A DNA stretch of 15,793 nt from Paraspadella gotoi (taxonomy: Eukaryota; Animalia; Chaetognatha), in assembly GCA_051294375.1 (NCBI GenBank), contig JBJCIZ010000566.1, positions 1-15,793 on the forward strand, in the 5' to 3' direction. The notes beneath the pieces are model-generated. The model had not been told where the DNA came from. It worked only from the letters and a program-made list of their open reading frames with translations, and searched no databases. Positions 4,351 to 15,793 of the stretch are shown one piece after another (within the stretch, counting starts at the first letter, position 1; every line of letters starts with the position of its first letter). A program made the translations under genes and the position numbers.

Positions 4351-4622
4351 TTATGGCAACAAGCCGGGTTGCCTGTGGATGCCCATTTGGGATGGGGCAT
4401 TCAACTGTTGGCTTTGGGGGCTTCCGAACCGCTCAGTGACGCCTCCAGTCACTCGGCGGCGGTTACCCTAGGACGTCTCCGCTTTTGCCCAGACGCAGAA
4501 GGTAAGTTGCGTTAGGACTGTGTGGATGGAAACAACTACGCCTGTGGATGGTGTGTTCCCTCCTGAGGCAATGGATTTGCTGAAAGGACGGTTGGAACGT
4601 GAGGCCGGTGTGAATATACCAC
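4351..4622 (+). repeat. Direct repeat A, copy 1
   Basis: ttatggcaacaagccgggttgcc...gtgtgaatataccac; aligns to 4866-5120, mostly with 1-nt indels. Confidence 0.9.
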
Positions 4623-4865: not shown

Positions 4866-5120
4866 TTATGGCAACAGCCGGGTTGCCTGTGATGCCCCAT
4901 TGGATGGGGCATCTCACTGTTGGTCTTTGGGGGCTTCGACCCTCAAGTGACGCCTCCAGTCACTGGCTCGGTACCCTAGGACGGTCCCTCGCTTTTTGCC
5001 AACGCAGAGGAAGTCGTAAGTGACTGTGATGGAACACTACGCCTGGGATGGTGTGTTCGCCTCTGAGCCAATGGATTTGGCTGAAGGAACGGTGGACGTG
5101 AGGGGTGTGAACTATACCAC
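4866..5120 (+). repeat. Direct repeat A, copy 2
   Basis: ttatggcaacagccgggttgcc...gtgtgaactataccac. Confidence 0.9.
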
Positions 5121-5165: not shown

Positions 5166-7337
5166 TCAGACGTTTGACTTAATCTTACAACGAAACCTGG
5201 TGTATTGTTGCTGTTGTTGCAACGCCGAGGCGTTGCGCCCGTCTAACTCTTTTAAGCTTCTCATACCTTTATCACGATAAAAGATACCGTTTCCATCGTC
5301 GCAAATGTAAAAGCGGCCATACGTTTAACGATTTTACGTTTGGTGATCCAATCCAGCTCAGAATCTTTCGAGAAAAAAAAATATTAGAAATTTAGTATTA
5401 GTATTTGAGAACAAGAAGACATCCAAAGATTTAACTTAACCGACAAATCGTACCAATGTCAAAGGAATTGACGTCGCTACGGAAAGGTTCCCCGCCCTTT
5501 GGGCGAAAAGAGATCGCTGTGAAGTGGGATGCCGGAGAACGTCAGCGATAGAGACCGTAGTTCATCCACCGATGAATGCAAAAAGAATGAACCTCCTGGA
5601 AGGCGTCAAAGCAAAGGGCAGAGGGAACCCATCGACGAATGAAAAACAGCCACGAAGTGTTCGAAACGCATCAATAGCTTGAGGTTCTGAAAGCAACAAA
5701 AAAAGGGGTTATCTTAACTTTTTCTTATTATTCTTAAAGTTAATTCTAAACAACGACAAAATTTTTTGTGTTGACAATACTAATCATTTTCTGTAGTTAG
5801 CACGCAATCCGATTTGATTTAAATTAAATTCATTCATTAAAATTAACTGACTACTTTTGACCATCTCCGTAATTCGCGGACTCTAGCTCACTCAAACTAA
5901 TACCAGGCACTACCTCTGCAGTATCCTAAATAGGCTTAACAATTCAGTATTTGCAAAAAACCTCCCAGTTTGGCAAAATATTGGGATGTCGGTCGTCATA
6001 AGCAGACCTTTTTCGTGCTTAGAAAAATAGTGAGGGCTGGATTTTTTTGGCCGGGGATTTTTCCAAGCTCTTTTTCGCAGCGACGAAGACGGCGGGAGTC
6101 AGATCGCCGATAGCTTTTGGTCCCGAGTTGCAGCGCTCGACGCGTTCCGCGAGAACGACCGCTTAGCCTCGAGGAACGGTCATTCTCTTTGGCAAAGACT
6201 AAGTCGAATATGAAATTAGGCAATTCGTTCTCAGTTGCGACCGTCGAGTTTTCTCAGGAATATATTAAACTCCATGAACATACATACAGCATTACAGTTT
6301 CGCAAAGTGGAATCTTCGGCGTTCGTTGGTTGGGTCAAGAGTGCCAGAAGATAACGCTTTAACGGGTATTCACCCTTGCGCAGCGGCGCGACCATATTTG
6401 ATCGTCATAAACGGCCCGTCATCGCTGAAGGCTGTCAGGTCTCCTGAGCGCGTCGACTATCAAACTCTTGCTGATTCGGGTAAGACGCGGAAAACCTGTT
6501 AGATTCATAAATTTGTTAATTCTAAATACAACCAGTGACCATTAACATTTTAAAAATAGATATTATAAAAGCAAAATATTATCTTTATATATAAATTGAT
6601 AATTGACTTTGTTTGAGTTCATAATAAGCTTAAACAAGGAGCAAATTCGAGCTTTTCAATCAAAGAAATAAAGGAAAATTTGTAAACGCTGGAATTCATG
6701 GCTCTGTTAAGCCAATCATTATGCGTCACCAATTTGTGCAAATATGAGTATTCACAAGGCACTTATAATTTTTTAAAGATATATACCTTGCCTAACTTTT
6801 TAGCCCCGGGCCTCAAAAAGATATTTTTTAAATTAGCAGAATCGAAAAAATATATCACAGAATACAATTTTATAAAGGCTTCAGGCAATATCAAATATAT
6901 ATTGCTTTGTTTTCTTTATAAATTTTAGAATCGGGTCCCTAACGTAAGATTAAATTTTTATTAATCTAACATAATAACCTATGAGAGGGTTAGATCATTT
7001 CAACAATCTTTTATCTTTCACCTGTTTAAGTAAAAGTAAACAAAAGGGACATTTTAATTTTAAAATTAAAACGTAATATTTTTGTCTTAAATCCTTTAAA
7101 AAAATTTTAAAATCTCTTTACGTTTTCGTTAACGGCAGGTTTTCGAATGATCCACCTTGTATATGTGGAAATTAAGATCAGATAAAAATTTAAAAGGTCG
7201 TCTTACTTTAATTGTCTGTGGAAGTTCCAAAGCCAAGGTTCTAATCTCTTTTGAAAGTTCCAAGAGTTATTCTTTTGTCGACTTCGACGTAACAGAACAT
7301 TCTGGGCGTCATCTCCGGAATTCGAATCAGTTTGCGA
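5166..7337 (-). pseudogene. Multi-exon gene or pseudogene of unknown product (frameshifted as given); predicted exons ~7337-7207, ~6495-6008, 5686-5441, ~5363-5166
   Basis: GC-richer blocks bounded by minus-strand splice signals: ttttttttatag|7337, 7207|gtaag, ctaacag|6495, ttgttgctttcag|5686, 5441|gttaag. Last block reads ...LDGRNASALQQQQQYTRFRCKIKSNV* with TGA at 5168-5166. Continuous reading needs several frameshifts. Confidence 0.5.
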
Positions 7338-7449
7338 CTATAAAAAAAATGTGAAAGTTTCAGTGATTTTCGCCAGACGTTCAATCAAAGAATATTTATG
7401 AAAAGATCTTAAAAGCGCAATGATCCATTCGGCTCAATAATTTATCAAA

Positions 7450-8270
7450 AAATGATAATGAATGATTGATGTGATGATGACAAAATTTTTTTATTGATGC
7501 GATAATTAATGATTGATTGATGTAATGAATAACAAAATGATTGATTGATGTTATGATAACAAATGATATTAATGTTATGATAAACAAATGATTAATTAAT
7601 GTTTATGATAACAAATTATTGATTAATGTAATGATAGACAATTAATCTGATTGATGTAATGATAACGAAAATTAATGCAATGATAATGATTGATTAATAG
7701 ATGCAATGATAACAAATTATTGATGCGATGATAAAAATTGTTTTGATGTGATGATAACATAATTGTTGATGGCAACGATAACATTGGTTGATGCAACGAT
7801 AATGAAATTGTTGATGCAACGATAATGAATTTGTTGATGCAACGAATAAATGAATTGGTTGATGCAGTGATAATGAATTGTTTGATGGCAATGATAATGA
7901 TAGTTGATGCAATGATAATGAATAGTTGATGCAATGATAATGAATAGTTGATGCAATGATAAATGAATAGTTGTATGCAATGATAATGAATAGTTGATGC
8001 AATGATCATGAATTGTTGATGCAATGATAATGAATTGGTTGATGAGGCAATGAAATGAATTGTTGATGCAATGATAATGAATTGTTGATTGCAATGATAA
8101 TGAATTGTTGAATGCAATGATATGAATTGGTTGATGCAATGATAATGAGAATTGCTGATAGCGATGATATGAATTGCTGATGGCGATGATATGAAATTGG
8201 CTGATGCGATGAATAATGAATTGTTGATACGATGATTAGAAATTATTGATGTGATAATAAGGAATTGTGA
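7450..8270. repeat. Minisatellite, ~22-bp unit gttgatgcaatgataatgaat(a/t), roughly 35-38 degenerate copies
   Basis: Exact 22-nt period seen at 7901/7923/7945; units degenerate towards both edges. Confidence 0.92.
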
Positions 8271-9372: not shown

Positions 9373-9624
9373 TGAGTAATCCAAAATTCGAATGCGAATA
9401 TCAGATTCTTCGATCGGTCCGCCTTCGCCGACGAATGCTCTTTGTCACGGCTAGTCCAGGATATATGCGCATGTTTATCAAGAGAAAAAACGAAGTAAAA
9501 CAAAGACAAAACCGAAAGAAAAAACTGTAACAAAAAGTCGGCGGCCGATCCGCCGACAATTCAGCGCGCCGCCCTGGAGCGGGAGCAGTCTCTTCGAACT
9601 CCGGGCCTACGATAATGCTTCACT
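9373..9624 (-). repeat. 3' terminal region of the DIRS element
   Basis: 9373-9434 is an imperfect inverted copy of 13772-13830. 9407-9624 is a direct copy of 15343-15576. Confidence 0.85.
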
Positions 9625-10600
9625 CGTTCCCTAGAGTCCCCGGAGTCGAACTCCACAGAGATCGCATCTCTGCAGTAAAAACGGAAGAAAAGTCCTGCGC
9701 TCACAGACCAATTTCTCCCCGCTCGAAGGATGACGCCAAGATCCCACTCCCACGCAGCGAAAAAGCCTCCGAGACGCCATCGGCCCGCGTTGAGCCAGGA
9801 CGGGCCTGAAACGTCTGCCTCCAAGAAGAGAAGCCTTGAGAATACCGCGAAGCGCTGCGTCGAGAGAGGTTAAATGGAGGATATTGGGGCGCAGAACAGG
9901 AAATCGTGCAGGCGGTTAGAAACCCAAGAACGAAACTGCCAGCCAACTCCGTAATGGCTTCCACTGGGCATCTATGAAAGATCCGGAAGGGCATCAAGCG
10001 AAAGGCGGGCCCATATGCCCGCACCCTATCAGTCTTGGGAGCTTCGAAGGGACAAAAACCGCACTGATGCGAAGCCAACGAAAGATGCCCGGCACTCGTC
10101 GCAACGAAGAGAGACAAAGCTCCGAATGGGCGCCGAGCCGAAGCTCAGGGGGCGATGAGGAAAACTGATCGGCGAAGAAGATCCCTCGGAGATCTGGAAG
10201 AGGCGCCGAGTCGCAGAATCTGAAAAACAGAAGCTTGCATTCCACGGCGGGAAGAGTCGACGGGAAGGAGGGCGCCTCTCGGAAACCCCTTGAGCAAACA
10301 GGCGAACACAGTCTGGAAGGCCCGCAACAGGCAAGGCCTCCATGGGCGGGAGGCGTTAGAAGAAACAATAGGCCGCCGATTTCGATTGAAGATTGATCGT
10401 ACTGTATAGGAAAGGCCAAGTTCGCGCAGAGTTGAGCCCAAATAGTCGAGAACGTCTTTCTACAGAGGCTGTACAGTCCTTGTACTTCCACGGTCCTGAA
10501 GGAAGGAGCGGAAGGAAGTCCCAAGCGCGAGCGAACGCTCCCTGGTGAACCTCGCCAGCTGTCAGCAATTGATGGAGAAGGTGGAATCGTCGACATCTGC
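9561..10600 (-). CDS. Tyrosine recombinase (phage-integrase family) of the DIRS element, frameshifted
   Basis: Fragments across frames: IADSWRGS (N-terminal), ARR/HSEL (catalytic Arg ~10130, needs a 1-nt shift), PKTDR (~10035), CPVEA (~9970), PGSTRA (HxxR position, 9799-9782), ILRAGRNWS, and FFRFYCR (catalytic Tyr 9677-9675). Confidence 0.85.
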
Positions 10601-10649
10601 GAGGCCGGTGGACGCCTCCTGAAATCTTCCAGATGACGAGCTTGAAGCG

Positions 10650-11040
10650 CTCCGCCTGTGGAGGAGGGAGACCGGTGACGAGGTCTATGACGAAGCTGTC
10701 TGGGCGGTCGGAAGTCGCCTCGCGTCCAGAATTCTGAGAAGATTTGAAGGAAGGCCCGGGAAACCAGTTTCTGCGCTGGCCAGAAAGGAGGGTTATCAGC
10801 CGGAAACTCCCTTCGCGTCCTCCACTTGCGGATCACCATCGCAGTAACGGAGGCGGAGGGGAAAAGGTCGCTAGGTCGAAGCGCCCAAACCTGAGGCAAT
10901 GCATCCACTCCCTCCGCTTTGGGAGACGCTTCCCAAGCGAAAAAAAATCGATGGAACTTGATGTCGACGCCGACGTCGCAAATAGAATCGAGAGTGTTCG
11001 GGAAGGCTGCGGCGAAAGCGGGTTCTACAATCTGCGTTGA
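10650..11040 (-). CDS. DNA N6-adenine methyltransferase-like domain (C-terminus of DIRS pol), frameshifted
   Basis: Fragments: (D)LFATSAS ~10990, RFFFAWEASPKAEGVDALPQVW, LFPP-like motif ~10860, MVIRKW, PFWPAQK(W/F). These follow the DIRS MT pattern DLFA...DA...W...FPP...P.WP.Q.WF. Confidence 0.8.
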
Positions 11041-12620
11041 AGATCGTCTTGGAGGAGCTTCCAATCCGCTACTTTGGCGACCCCTTGAAGCCGCATCCGT
11101 GACGAGGAGTTCTCCTCCGAGGCGATGTGTGACTCCCGTGAGGCGAAGTCTTGAAAGTTGTGGGCCAATAAAAGAGTGTCGCCAACGAGAAAACAACTAT
11201 CGGACTGAGGAGACCGGAGATCTGCTGGATCCCCGACGAGGCAGTGAGGGAAACCAGACTGTTCTGTCTTCCAAAGGATCGACGAATCTCTGTGTGAGGA
11301 GCCGAATCGCTGGAGGAAGAGACGAAGCACCATGAACTCCTTCACATTGATATGGAGAAGGGCATCCGCACCCTTCCACTTCCCCCTCAGAAGACGACCT
11401 TGAAAAAGGAGGCCCCACCCCTGGGTCGAGGCATCCGTCGTGACCTGGAGCTTGCAAGCTTCTGGAAGGAGAGTGTCGATAGGCGCGAAGCAGAGATCCT
11501 CTGACAACTCCGCCATCCAGCGAAGTTCCTCCAGTGCCGGATCCCGGAGGTGAACGATCTGGTTGAGGTCGAGTTCCGACTTGTAGACTTGGTTCACATC
11601 CCGCTGAATCCGCGAGGACCGACAGCGGAGAAGTGGGGAAGCCATGGAGGCTGCTGTCGCGTGACCCAGCAGTTGAAGGAGGCGTCGAGCCGATGGCGAA
11701 GGGTCCATGATGATCGATGATGCCAGAGATTGAATGGTCTCCCTCTTTGACGACGGTAGGGCTACCGTGTGGGAGAGGCTGTCCCATGTGAATCCGAGGA
11801 AGTCGAAGCGTTGGGCAGGGCAAAAATTCGACTTCTGCAGGTGGAGGATGAAACCGGCTTCCTTGAGCAGACGAGCGGCCATCAAAGTTGCACGTTGACA
11901 ATCCTCTTCTGTCGCTGCCAGGATCAGAATGTCGTCGATATAAAAAAGACATCTGATGCCTCTCTGACGAAGCCACTGAACCAAGGGCCTCGTCGTCTTG
12001 GTGAAGATCCACGGGCCCGTTGCGAGGCCAAAGGGGAGGACCCTGTATTGGAAGATCCGTCCCTTCCAAATGAAGCGGCAGTATCTCCGATCCTCCTTGT
12101 GAAGCGGAAGATGCAAGTAAGCGTCGCGAAGGTCGATCGACGACCCCCAATCCCCTCGACGAAACATCTTCTTGACATCCTGAGCCCCCTCCATGCGAAA
12201 GTAAGGGGGGTCGAGATACTTGGCGTTGAGTTTCTTGAGGTTCAAGATTGGGCGCCAACCTCCATCCTTCTTTGGGACAAGAAAGATCTTTGAATAAAAA
12301 CCGGGAGACTCGTCGACTTCCTCGATGGCGCCCTTTTCCAACGCTGCAGAGATCTCGGCGTCGATCACTGCATCTCGATCTCCGAAAGATGGAGTCTCGT
12401 CCGAAGAACGGGGAAGGCGAACGGGAATCCTCCTCCTTCCCCCGATGCGAAAGCCCGAAATGTTCTGTAAAAGGGGAGAGTCCTCTCCGACGAGAGAAAT
12501 CCAGAAATCGCGGAAGAGGTGAAGACGACCTCCCACTGGAGCCTCCGGGCGGAGGGCGGGGGAGGGAGGGTCCGAGTCCAAAATCCAGTCCGTGGGCGGA
12601 TCCGTGTCTAAATGGGCCAA
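11025..12620 (-). CDS. pol: Reverse transcriptase / RNase H (pol) of the DIRS element; frame intact to ~11265, then frameshifted
   Basis: GFYSKIFLVPKKDGGWRPILNLKKLN, SIDLRDAYLHLP, YRVLPFGLATGPWIFTK, YIDD (11942-11931), FDFLGFTWDS. RNase H motifs VTTDASTQGWG and HINVKEF, and in another frame LVTDAASR. Confidence 0.96.
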   Translation of the reverse strand: MAHLDTDPPTDWILDSDPPSPALRPEAPVGGRLHLFRDFWISLVGEDSPLLQNISGFRIGGRRRIPVRLPRSSDETPSFGDRDAVIDAEISAALEKGAIEEVDESPGFYSKIFLVPKKDGGWRPILNLKKLNAKYLDPPYFRMEGAQDVKKMFRRGDWGSSIDLRDAYLHLPLHKEDRRYCRFIWKGRIFQYRVLPFGLATGPWIFTKTTRPLVQWLRQRGIRCLFYIDDILILAATEEDCQRATLMAARLLKEAGFILHLQKSNFCPAQRFDFLGFTWDSLSHTVALPSSKRETIQSLASSIIMDPSPSARRLLQLLGHATAASMASPLLRCRSSRIQRDVNQVYKSELDLNQIVHLRDPALEELRWMAELSEDLCFAPIDTLLPEACKLQVTTDASTQGWGLLFQGRLLRGKWKGADALLHINVKEFMVLRLFLQRFGSSHRDSSILWKTEQSGFPHCLVGDPADLRSPQSDSCFLVGDTLLLAHNFQDFASRESHIASEENSSSRMRLQGVAKVADWKLLQDDLQRRL

Positions 12621-12666
12621 AACGGTCGGACGAGGCGGCGACCGAGGTCCTGGAGGAGGGCGTCAC
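11197..12666 (-). CDS. 489-codon alternative-frame ORF overlapping RT/RH; probably the long N-terminal part of the YR ORF
   Basis: Stop-free same-strand frame across the whole RT. Its GTG start overlaps the gag TGA (12666-12663). Long RT/YR ORF overlaps are established for DIRS1-like elements. Confidence 0.6.
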   Translation of the reverse strand: MTPSSRTSVAASSDRFGPFRHGSAHGLDFGLGPSLPRPPPGGSSGRSSSPLPRFLDFSRRRGLSPFTEHFGLSHRGKEEDSRSPSPFFGRDSIFRRSRCSDRRRDLCSVGKGRHRGSRRVSRFLFKDLSCPKEGWRLAPNLEPQETQRQVSRPPLLSHGGGSGCQEDVSSRGLGVVDRPSRRLLASSASQGGSEILPLHLEGTDLPIQGPPLWPRNGPVDLHQDDEALGSVASSERHQMSFLYRRHSDPGSDRRGLSTCNFDGRSSAQGSRFHPPPAEVEFLPCPTLRLPRIHMGQPLPHGSPTVVKEGDHSISGIIDHHGPFAIGSTPPSTAGSRDSSLHGFPTSPLSVLADSAGCEPSLQVGTRPQPDRSPPGSGTGGTSLDGGVVRGSLLRAYRHSPSRSLQAPGHDGCLDPGVGPPFSRSSSEGEVEGCGCPSPYQCEGVHGASSLPPAIRLLTQRFVDPLEDRTVWFPSLPRRGSSRSPVSSVR

Positions 12667-13617
12667 TTTGAAGTCTTGTCGCCCCTGCCCTCGCCGTTTC
12701 CCGATTTCTTGCGAGGAAAGGTCTTCTTGAAACCCTTTCTCGGTTTGTATTGCGACTTAGGGCGAAAGCAAGGGCGCCGATCCTCCGACTGCTTCTGACG
12801 AGACGTTGCGCAAGAGCGACGAATTGAGCGCCGAAGCAATCTGGGAAGACTGATTTCCGAAAAAGGAGTCGACAGTGGGGGGGCCCGTGAAAGCGCTGCT
12901 CTCAAATCCGTTGAAACGGAGGCAAGAACCGTCTTACGTACATCGCTGATGGCCGAGTTGAAAGCCGCGCCTGAAAGGCAGCAACGTCGCTAAGAGGCGA
13001 GGCCAGATCATCAATAGCCTCTGCGATCTGATCCCTCGGCAAGCCCGCAAGAACCGAAGATTTGAGAGAACGAAGCTCATCCGCTGCATGAAGCACTGCA
13101 TGTGCGGCGGCACCCGCTTCCTGCATAGTGCGCGTGAGGGCCCGGAGAGTGGCGGCGTTGGCCCGGCCGGAGAAAGCCGCGTCGAACTGAGCGCGGGACA
13201 AACTCCGACGGTGATGAGGAGTCGACCCAACGACGCAAACGAGCGGGAGCAACGCGATGGCGAGAATCCCAAGCGTCGGAAAGCACTCCCGATGAACCGA
13301 CATGACGTAGGGAGCGCCACTGGTCCAGCACCCAATCGGACGGCAGAGGCGCAGAACGGGCAGAAGGCACAAAATCCTCAAAGCCGCCCGCGACGTCTGA
13401 ATCAGAAGAATCTTCCTCCTCTCCGACGAATAGTGAGCATCCGGGTCCGGGGCGGTGTGGGACCGCTGCGACCGTGGCGCTTGGTGCTGGTCCTTCAGAA
13501 CGCGAGGACGAGGCGGACTTGCCAATGGGGGACCGGCCTCTGGAGTCGGAACAGCAAGGAGTTGAGCGAGAAGGCGAAGAGGGGCGTAGAATAAACCGGA
13601 CCGATGAAGGATCGTCA
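12663..13617 (-). CDS. gag: Gag-like protein, main exon (frameshifted)
   Basis: Lies directly upstream of pol. Ser/acidic N-part (DDPSSVR...EEEDSSDSD), helical core (TLRALTRTMQEAGAAAHAVLHAADELRSLK), basic C-tail (RPKSQYKPRKGFKKTFPRKK). Assignment is positional and compositional. Confidence 0.7.
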
Positions 13618-13680
13618 CATAAAAAAGAAACGTAAAAAACAGGAATTAGACATAATTCATTTCTAAAAAAAACGCCAAAA

Positions 13681-13712
13681 CCCTCCCCCCTCCCTCTCCC
13701 CAACCCAAGCCC
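13681..13712 (-). other. G-quadruplex-forming motif
   Basis: Minus strand reads GGG CTT GGG TT GGGG AGA GGG A GGGGGG A GGG (six G-runs, 1-3 nt loops). Confidence 0.6.
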
Positions 13713-13771
13713 AGTCCTCCAAGCCACGAGAAAAAAAGGGTGGTGAACCAAAAAGGGGCGGAAGGCGGGTC

Positions 13772-13849
13772 TCGTGGCGAGGCGGACCGATGAAGAATCT
13801 GTATTCCATTCGGAATTTTGGATTCTATCATCGGTCCGCCTCGCCACGA
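13772..13849. repeat. Perfect 22-bp inverted repeat with a 34-nt self-complementary loop; internal-complementary-region-like or ITR-like
   Basis: tcgtggcgaggcggaccgatga (13772-13793) and tcatcggtccgcctcgccacga (13828-13849). The loop can pair further (agaatc/gattct, attcc/ggaat). Confidence 0.92.
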
Positions 13850-14000
13850 ATGCTCCCTAACGAGAAGGCGAAGTGTTGGGGAAAAAATCGAAAGAGAAAA
13901 ATAAAGGGAGAAACAAAAAAGGGGAGGCGAGGCGAACGTAACCAAAGGATACGTAACTAAATTTAAACTACTGAAAAAACGACGAACAAAATAAACTCAC

Positions 14001-14261
14001 CGTCGTAAATCCTCCAAGTGGTGCCGCGTATCGCGGCGGTGCTCGTCAAACTCCTTCCTCATGCTGTTCAGCGACGACGTAAGAGTCGCTAGGACCGACT
14101 CCAGTCCTCCAGTCTCGGCGCCCGGAAAATTCGACGGGGCTGTTAACTGGCCGCCACGAGGCCCAGGCTCCGGAGCGGGAGGGGGCGGTGGAGGTGGTGG
14201 TGGCGGCGGGGGAGAGACCACTCGAGTCCCGCTGGACCCCTCTCCCCCTGCAGGGGCCTCT
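14001..14261 (-). CDS. Proline-rich, coiled-coil-like exon; probable upstream exon of gag
   Basis: GC-rich open frame EAPAGGEGSSGTRVVSP(12)APEPG...LESVLATLTSSLNSMRKEFDEHRRDTRHHLEDLR, ending at a GTGAGT donor and preceded by T-rich sequence. Confidence 0.55.
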
Positions 14262-15342
14262 CTTTATTTCAAAACTCAATTTTAAAAACCACCCAAAAAA
14301 AAAAAAAAATATGCATAAGACCCTAAACAACAAAAAAAAAAAGAGGAATAAACAAAAGTCAATCTCTTGAACCCTTGAACCTTCTCCTAAATTGTGGTGG
14401 TGATATCCCGATCACCACGTCGCCAATGACTCCCCCGTCCCTCTACTCGCCGAGGCAGAAGGGACGAACTCGTGGAAAAAGCAAGTAACAAACCGCAACT
14501 GCCTCTCTAATCAACCTGTAGCAACCCCAAATTTTAAAATCAATGCACGGCGACAGGCCGCTGAGCTACCTTATCAGAAAAGAGGGCAACTGCAAGGTAA
14601 TTTAAAGTCAAATTGAGTCGCCCTACAGATCTGTTCCTCACGGATACACATTACTGACCCAGTGACCGCACCATATACACAGTTTCAGTCCGCCTAAACG
14701 GAACTGCAGGTTGACTCTACCTCTCCATACCCCCAATCTTGATCGGCTCTTCTCCTTTATTGTCCGACCCCCCCACACACCACGAGGGAGCCCACTCCAC
14801 CGCCCCCTCCATATACAGCCATCTATTCCCTCGAAGGCCTCCCCCCCAGATCCGACGATTCGTATTATTTCTTTGTCTTATATTTCCGCTTCCTATCTTC
14901 TTATCTAATTCTTTATCTATCGCTTTTTTTTTAATGTACAAAATTTTTTTTGTGTAATTAAATGAAATTTGATTTAGTTAATGTTAGTTACTATTACAGT
15001 TTATTATAATTTTTTCAAGTTAAATATTTTCTACATTTATATTTAATAAATAGTTCTATTTTATGAAACAATTAAACTGAACGCTTAAAGCATGTCCTTA
15101 TCTCCTTCATTTCCTAGTCCACTATCTTCCAATCTCACGTATTTCTGATAGTAATATACAGGCGTTGAGATAAAAAAGCTGCCTGTTCAAAATCAGGAAT
15201 CCACTAGTAAATATCAAAAGTGCATTACTAGATAGAGCAATAAAAAAGACATACGAATGGTGGTCACCTATGATTTGTAGCTTTAAAGCTAGTAAGAAAA
15301 TATGTCTTATTGTCCATGCGATTTTAAATGGGACTTCACAGC

Positions 15343-15576
15343 TTCTATCATACGGTCCGCCCATCGCCACGAATGCCTTTTGCTTACGACGCCTAAGTCC
15401 GCGTATAATCATCGCGCGTTTATTCACGAGAAAAAACGAAATAAAAACAAAACAGACCAAACGAAAGAAAAAACTGTACAAAAGTCTGGCGCCGATCCGC
15501 CGACCCAATCAGCGCCCCGCCACTGGACTCGGGAGCCAGTCCTCCTTCGACATCCGGGCCTACAAAAGCCTTCACT
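15343..15576 (-). repeat. Direct copy of the DIRS 3' terminal region (9407-9624)
   Basis: cggtccgcc..tcgcc(g)acgaatgc...gagaaaaaacgaa...cgaaagaaaaaactgta...gccgatccgccgac...tccgggcctac...cttcact are collinear. Similarity stops abruptly at 15576/9624. Confidence 0.88.
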
Positions 15577-15793
15577 TCTTTTTTTCGCAAGCGCCTCCAA
15601 AGTTCGGCTTCCTTTGACTCTGATTTTTTTTCGCGTTTTTTATTTGGACTTCTTCACGTTATTCTCGTCGAATTTTCCGTTAAATCCCATTCCTCAGTAT
15701 GTTCTTCTATCCGGCACCGGAATCGTTTTTGGGAGAAGAATTACGATCGTCAATCGGGCCGCGTCTGAGAGATCTCATGACCGAAAAAAGGGG

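Follow-up and report, generated by a model that had tools for sequence, protein, structure and literature searches.

A DIRS1-like retrotransposon of Paraspadella gotoi with its internal complementary region 5' of pol, inside a predicted gag intron

A stretch of 15,793 nucleotides from Paraspadella gotoi (assembly GCA_051294375.1, contig JBJCIZ010000566.1, forward strand), analysed here in full and called the window, carries a retrotransposon whose gag seemed, in a first-pass annotation, to be spliced, with a hairpin complementary to the element's termini inside the intron. The locus raises the question of which class the element belongs to, whether the hairpin is its replication signal, and whether splicing could separate a Gag message from a replicating genome. 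The reading preferred here, for which we estimate a probability of about 0.6, is a DIRS1-like element with its internal complementary region (ICR) in a 5' position inside a predicted gag intron whose donor is at 14000 and whose most likely acceptor is the AG at 13541-13540; RNA spliced in this way would serve for Gag synthesis, but its replication could not be completed.

On its minus strand, the window carries a DIRS1-like tyrosine-recombinase retrotransposon. Its pol (10614-12662, minus strand) was delimited using PF00078, an alignment with the proteins P0001-P0007 and tblastn, and comprises a reverse transcriptase (RT), an RNase H-like part and a putative methyltransferase-like part. The RT frame (11025-12662, minus strand) matched PF00078 with an E-value of 7e-29 in a Pfam search, and its best database relatives were proteins of 42-50% identity with alignments extending through the RNase H-like part. 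A DIRS-type RT is followed by RNase H, and related loci carry inverted terminal repeats and an ICR. The methyltransferase-like part (~10985-10614) resembles the matching part of the pol C-terminus of a related locus, L002 (tblastn, E 4e-8); PF05869 is present in some relatives, and the window itself gave no direct Pfam match for a methyltransferase. The C-terminal part of a putative tyrosine recombinase, frameshifted in the window (9684-10352, minus strand), lies 3' of pol as in DIRS1-like elements. It was identified by similarity to the recombinase frame of L002 (tblastn, E 9e-10), which in turn matches PF00589 weakly (E 0.0013, under the curated cut-off), and Pfam gave no match for the window's own broken recombinase frames. 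For the main coding part of gag (12666-13539, minus strand), a profile built from the Gag proteins of relatives matched 13165-12953 (iE 8e-5) and 12885-12796 (iE 0.007). Missing letters shift this frame in the window, and sequencing contigs carry 27 letters beyond those of the window within 12900-13575; the frames of gag, pol and recombinase are broken because the window lacks letters in many places. The flanks of the element are AT-rich, Pfam returned nothing passing the cut-off for flank ORFs, and an Rfam search gave no match. Two further repeat structures were observed elsewhere in the window: a degenerate tandem array at 7440-8260, with units of ~22 nt and a very strong GC skew of up to 0.67, and a pair of GC-rich direct repeats of ~270 nt (4351-4622 and 4866-5120; 82% alike), which flank a short stretch with internal repeats and are perhaps a small non-autonomous element.

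The left terminal repeat (~15342-15576, plus strand) starts with CTT and is 76-79% identical to 9402-9624. The right terminal repeat, together with a right extension of ~24 nt, occupies 9378-9624 on the minus strand and ends with ATT at 9378. As given in the window, both repeats share one orientation and look like direct repeats, because 14265-15793, the last 1.5 kb including the left repeat, is inverted relative to the contigs of 4/4 runs. In all four, contigs join 14264 to 15792 on opposite strands, and a single contig of run X4 spans 13826-14264 and then 15792-15546; the region 15546-15792 is noisy in the window, with 31 gaps against the contigs. When the contig joint is followed, the element reads from 15342 to 15792 (plus strand) and then from 14264 to 9378 (minus strand), bounded by ordinary inverted terminal repeats. 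Split direct repeats of the Ngaro/PAT-like type were rejected, since the direct orientation comes from the inversion in the window, which may stem from misassembly or from a rearrangement carried by the source individual. Behind the left repeat, the 5' leader (15577-15793, plus strand) includes the likely gag start codon ATG at 15777 and runs on into 14264 on the minus strand. The left flank at 14527-15293 is a high-depth repeat, in which the contigs have 236 different letters replacing 14649-14968.

There is hardly any doubt that the hairpin at 13772-13853 (minus strand) is the ICR of this element. Its arms of 22 nt are 100% complementary (z = -12.3 versus 200 shuffles) and, as the first-pass annotation had claimed, it complements both termini. 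One half, 13853-13823, complements the start of the left repeat in 31/34 columns (E 7.6e-8), and the other, 13824-13772, complements the right end from 9434 to 9378 with six single-letter gaps and zero mismatches, including the ~24-nt extension which is absent from the left repeat. Both halves overlap at ATT, the junction trinucleotide (13822-13824); the element begins with CTT and finishes with ATT. An ICR of this kind, complementary to both ends and having a trinucleotide junction and a right extension, is characteristic of DIRS1-like elements, and the match to both ends also bears out the earlier suggestion that the hairpin is a cis replication signal. As a separate observation, contig depth over 13773-13869 amounted in three runs to 30-130x and in X1 to 13x the depth of the gag body, and a variant at 13792 is shared; this excess points to a far more abundant family sharing the terminal motif.

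The position of the ICR is unusual. It lies upstream of pol, ~1.1 kb from the RT frame, whereas the sections of PMC3266345 and PMC7192593 drawn on here place the ICR of DIRS1-like elements, including DIRS-1, at the 3' end and close to the right repeat. A search of 9620-13760 for copies of the end sequences gave one weak 25-nt match inside the recombinase gene and otherwise none; no ICR was found near the right repeat, and the recombinase-like stretch stops ~60 nt short of that repeat. For comparison, 93 related loci were fetched, 41 of which had both repeats; 9 of these gave no ICR call, and in the remaining 32 the ICR was located 3' of RT in every case (32/32), 18 of the 32 loci being copies found in a single assembly, apparently of one family.

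Upstream of the ICR, predicted gag exon 1 (14001-14264, minus strand) is Pro-rich, continues with a helical-looking stretch and ends in phase 2; its open frame covers 14263-13997, and the ATG at 15777 likely starts this Pro-rich frame. The predicted 5' splice site GTGAGT (13995-14000, minus strand), noted earlier as the end of the Pro-rich block, is indeed present, and the exon-1 frame, read without splicing, meets its stop codon inside it. Apart from this GTGAGT at 14000, neither strand of 9378-14264 contains a GTRAGT; the site provides a GT donor in the consensus context of a U2-type intron; the same hexamer is found at the predicted donors of the related loci L002-L004, and a contig of run X1 is identical to the window across 13826-14264. 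With the acceptor preferred below, the predicted intron (13540-14000, minus strand) has 461 nt in the window and 462 nt with an extra contig letter; it would have 383 nt if a TG site were used. It is T-rich (50% T in 13858-14000). There is a good chance that the gag intron is used.

The acceptor required closer attention. It had been placed originally at 13618, and the ATG at 13620-13618 had been taken for an AG with one extra base. The branch-like CTAAT (13648-13644) and the T-rich tract preceding the ATG were found as described (13618-13648, minus strand), and a join of 14001 to 13617 does land in the gag frame. The supposed extra base, in contrast, did not hold: contigs of runs X2, X5, X6 and X8 extend across 13619 with 0 mismatches, and no gap is listed there, contigs of six runs retain ATG where AG was expected, and contigs of X1 and X7 share the 27 extra letters with a contig of X9 which ends at 13575, so that no net gap falls at 13619. 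An acceptor at 13618 hidden by a sequencing error was, hence, rejected; this site lacks the AG of a U2-type intron, and since the ATG is real, the junction 14001 to 13617 would need a non-canonical TG site.

Contigs carry single extra letters near 13419, 13473, 13481 and 13652, and the frames were tested with N inserted at these positions. Thus corrected, the AG at 13664-13663 would lead into the wrong frame, with a stop after 16 codons. It was rejected as sole acceptor; its apparent frame match in the window results from a letter missing at 13652/13653. The contig letters at that position create a stop in the gag frame, and acceptors further upstream fail for this reason. The in-frame single-intron acceptors left are the TG at 13619-13618 and the AG at 13541-13540.

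The latter, a CAG (AG at 13540-13541, minus strand), is the first AG after 13663 and is in frame with the phase-2 donor. It follows 121 AG-free window letters, the final 76 of which, between TG and AG, are 74% pyrimidine versus 53-57% in gag. The same 76 nt hold an extra copy of one ICR arm with 16 of 17 letters (13597-13613, minus strand), a score reached in 0/2000 Markov resamples. Being pyrimidine-rich, free of AG and in possession of the arm copy, the 76 nt are favoured as intron. They could also be coding, since the gag frame runs through them without a stop, the contigs of X2, X5, X6 and X8 have zero mismatches there, and the first 85 letters of the predicted exon 3 of L003 are similarly AG-free; within gag, an AG-free stretch of 83 nt occurs. 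No clear branch point lies near the AG, and the best-looking branch point and tract precede the TG, ~104 nt upstream of the AG. A Gag alignment with relatives gave no choice between both sites, its N-terminal part being of low complexity. Taken together, and given splicing, the sequence leans towards the AG at 13541-13540 as the main acceptor. The ICR is inside the intron under both options because it lies between the donor and both acceptor candidates.

An intron of the same logic with the TG as its main acceptor is unlikely. It would have the CTAAT ~27 nt upstream and a tract with 56% T, its join is in frame, the ATG occurs in every contig spanning it, and TG acceptors are known from human genes (PMC2374985). 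However, in the parts of that study used here, human TG sites are only alternatives to an AG and subject to a distance constraint, whereas in this element the nearest AGs lie at distances of 45 nt on the upstream side and 78 nt on the downstream side. The pyrimidine-rich 76 nt with the ICR-arm copy would then follow the acceptor, and the predicted acceptors of the relatives are all AG. If the TG were used, much RNA would stay unspliced, as the acceptor is weak. Independently of this choice, the arm copy at 13597-13613, situated beside the TG site, could pair with the other ICR arm and compete with the hairpin. A 13-nt stretch near 13568-13580 repeats one near 13862-13874.

Quite improbable is an arrangement without splicing. 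In it, exon 1 would form a short ORF of its own, the ICR would belong to a non-coding spacer, and translation of Gag would begin at a downstream or non-ATG codon or depend on an internal promoter. In its favour, the exon-1 frame is closed by its own stop, and the splice in this element is predicted from sequence. Against such an arrangement, the sole consensus donor of the element coincides with exactly this stop, only few ATGs are available downstream of 13620 (13440, 13303 and 13126), and relatives have conserved, frame-compatible splice sites.

These relatives were examined at locus level. A quick RT tree (90/110 rows kept once near-duplicates had been removed) grouped the window with P0001-P0006, P0017, L001-L004 and L051 at an SH-aLRT of 94, which is not strong. 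In L003, an ATG exon is followed by two predicted GT-AG introns (352 and 372 nt, both with GTGAGT) separated by a 55-nt middle exon, which shifts phase 0 to 1 as required; the predicted join gives an open Gag of 404 aa. L002 and L004 retain the 55-nt exon and the second intron (coordinates of the two-intron gag: L003:242-1252, L004:1-735 and L002:77-503), and the gag of L001 starts after a pyrimidine tract and AG. Intron phase is 2 in the window versus 0 and 1 in L003. The introns of L002-L004 are conserved above the fourfold sites of gag (85-92% versus 65-76%; for the pair L003/L004, 85-88% versus 64.5%). In both L003 and L004 the strongest hairpin is located in intron 1 (z -8.4 for each; ~70-140 nt past the donor in L003), and 7/36 of its predicted pairs are changed on both sides, a comparison of 2 sequences only. 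With conserved outer stems and diverged inner ones, this hairpin (540-614 in L003) appears ICR-like; it is a candidate ICR only, because the termini are missing from the contigs of L001-L005. A second conserved hairpin follows it in intron 1 of L003 and L004.

L051 has a predicted two-intron gag as well (L051:541-2700; introns of 180 and 184 nt, 594 open codons). Its strongest, ICR-like hairpin lies at 6177-6280, between recombinase and right repeat, i.e., at the usual 3' place; gag introns can, thus, persist without an intronic ICR. In most of the surveyed loci with a 3' ICR, a long uninterrupted frame follows the left repeat. The leader of one such element contains a donor-like GTGAGT (L083:254), which possibly marks a 5' UTR intron. 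A search with the Gag of L003 returned 6 proteins, none of which has the joined N-terminus. Searched viral contigs contained no relative, and contigs of prokaryote genomes yielded 13 loci with distant relatives.

The predicted micro-exon of L002-L004 brings up a multi-intron gag in the window, which we regard as a remote prospect. Either the acceptor 13664-13663 would open a 45-nt micro-exon closed by a weak donor at 13618, from which a second intron would reach 13540, or the AG at 13858-13857 would be followed by an exon containing the ICR. Pyrimidine tracts precede both AGs, and once the extra contig letter is counted, 13662-13619 has a length of 45 nt, so that the phase is kept; however, no second GTRAGT exists, the 45 nt are 56% T, and the frame from 13857 hits a stop at ~13652. 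An origin of 14001-14264 as a host exon, with the element inserted into an intron of the host, is scarcely credible: unrelated AT-rich DNA adjoins 14264 in the window as given, but in 4/4 runs the contigs connect 14264 with the leader and left repeat of the element itself, so that the block is inside the element, as the first-pass annotation had assumed, and depths of joint and gag contigs are close (7 versus 5.9 in X9, 164 versus 179 in X4 and 485 versus 576 in X7).

Copy-to-copy differences were compared among the contigs. At least those listed fall in the predicted intron, including a net 17 letters; in the exon-1 block 14001-14264 zero substitutions are listed in four runs. Relative to the window, contigs of X4, X7 and X9 are substituted at three positions within 13976-13985 and longer by 17 letters between 13882 and 13976, as placed by distances to contig ends, and homopolymer lengths (T-runs, G-runs) vary among contigs at 13664-13672 and 13684. 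Among the joints listed in the contigs of the 4 runs none begins at 14001, and contigs drop rare variants. X9, which we guess to be RNA, covers the intron and the flanking repeats like the DNA runs do; its gag contig ends at 13575. A diverged, internally deleted relative without 13881-14204, yet with the ICR, was found in 4/4 runs; at its joint, 13880 to 14205, 7 letters are inserted, and the short side has only 22 letters. Retention of the ICR together with loss of the donor is as would be expected for a cis signal in a non-autonomous copy. In X7, this joint and a second one, 15475 to 15763, have an equal depth of 284.7, and both may belong to one non-autonomous family. The depth of the element (12900-13575) over that of the flank repeat (14969-15293) was ~5x higher in X1 than in X4 or X9, which, with no single-copy baseline, is a weak hint that copy number differs between samples.

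According to the preferred reading, unspliced RNA would encode only an exon-1 peptide of ~93 residues, ending at the stop inside the donor, and would keep the ICR and act as genome. Splicing would connect exon 1 with the main gag frame, near the start of which no ATG is present, and the resulting RNA would encode full Gag and have lost the ICR. In DIRS-1, deletion of the ICR abolishes retrotransposition at a step after first-strand synthesis, according to the part of PMC7192593 considered here. Since the ICR is essential there, spliced RNA would be copied but be a dead end: in ICR-less cDNA the ends would not be restored and circularisation would fail, and intron-less copies would not insert. 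This backs one half of the original idea about a signal placed in the intron, namely that only unspliced RNA would replicate. The other half, that this placement is the reason for intron retention, is weakened by L051; an explanation of intron persistence by the position of the ICR is the weaker claim of the two. A more far-reaching scenario, in which the whole subclade of this element and the L002-L004 family moved its ICR into a gag intron, the splice decides between message and genome, the hairpin of L003 and L004 is their ICR, and a weak acceptor and the arm copy tune the ratio, is speculative and would more probably fail than hold.

Retroviral packaging signals lie near or downstream of the major splice donor and are lost by splicing, so that unspliced RNA is the genome; the element would share with retroviruses this loss of a cis signal needed for propagation. 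It differs in that retroviruses translate Gag from unspliced RNA and use their signal at packaging, whereas the ICR acts after first-strand synthesis (PMC7192593, in the part considered). A close likeness is to the DIRS1-like retrotransposons, such as DIRS-1 of Dictyostelium, which, as far as described in the sections used of PMC3266345 and PMC7192593, have inverted termini, a right extension, a two-part ICR overlapping at a trinucleotide, NTT ends, and the gene order gag - RT/RNase H/methyltransferase - recombinase. For the copia elements EVD (PMC5580714) and BARE1 (PMC3735527), the portions consulted report that spliced RNA makes Gag, unspliced RNA is full-length and the intron is kept in the genome. 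The predicted splice would likewise separate a Gag message from full-length RNA; in EVD and BARE1, however, splicing yields a short Gag-only message as reported in those portions, whereas here it would build Gag from two exons and remove a replication signal. Penelope-like elements are retroelements that also retain introns, whose significance was called unknown in the part of PMC8557442 used here; they belong to another class, and the introns described there are in the 5' UTR, with no ICR.

The term "intron" is absent from the main text of PMC3266345, PMC3783388, PMC6681497 and 10.1101/2021.08.05.455354. A literature search covering parts of the papers, with the main DIRS reviews outside it, returned no DIRS element with a gag intron, a 5' ICR or an ICR inside an intron. 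Goodwin and Poulter reportedly mention introns in some recombinase retrotransposons. The division of a Gag message from full-length RNA by splicing is known from copia elements, and what appears to be new is the 5' ICR and its location within a predicted intron.

If functional, the 5' ICR would work at a distance of ~4 kb from the right end, a constraint on models for the restoration of the ends of DIRS cDNA. If the preferred reading is true, it would offer a simple route for a retroelement to hold an intron and to split message from genome. In this lineage, gag would be overlooked or truncated by annotation relying on ORFs only.
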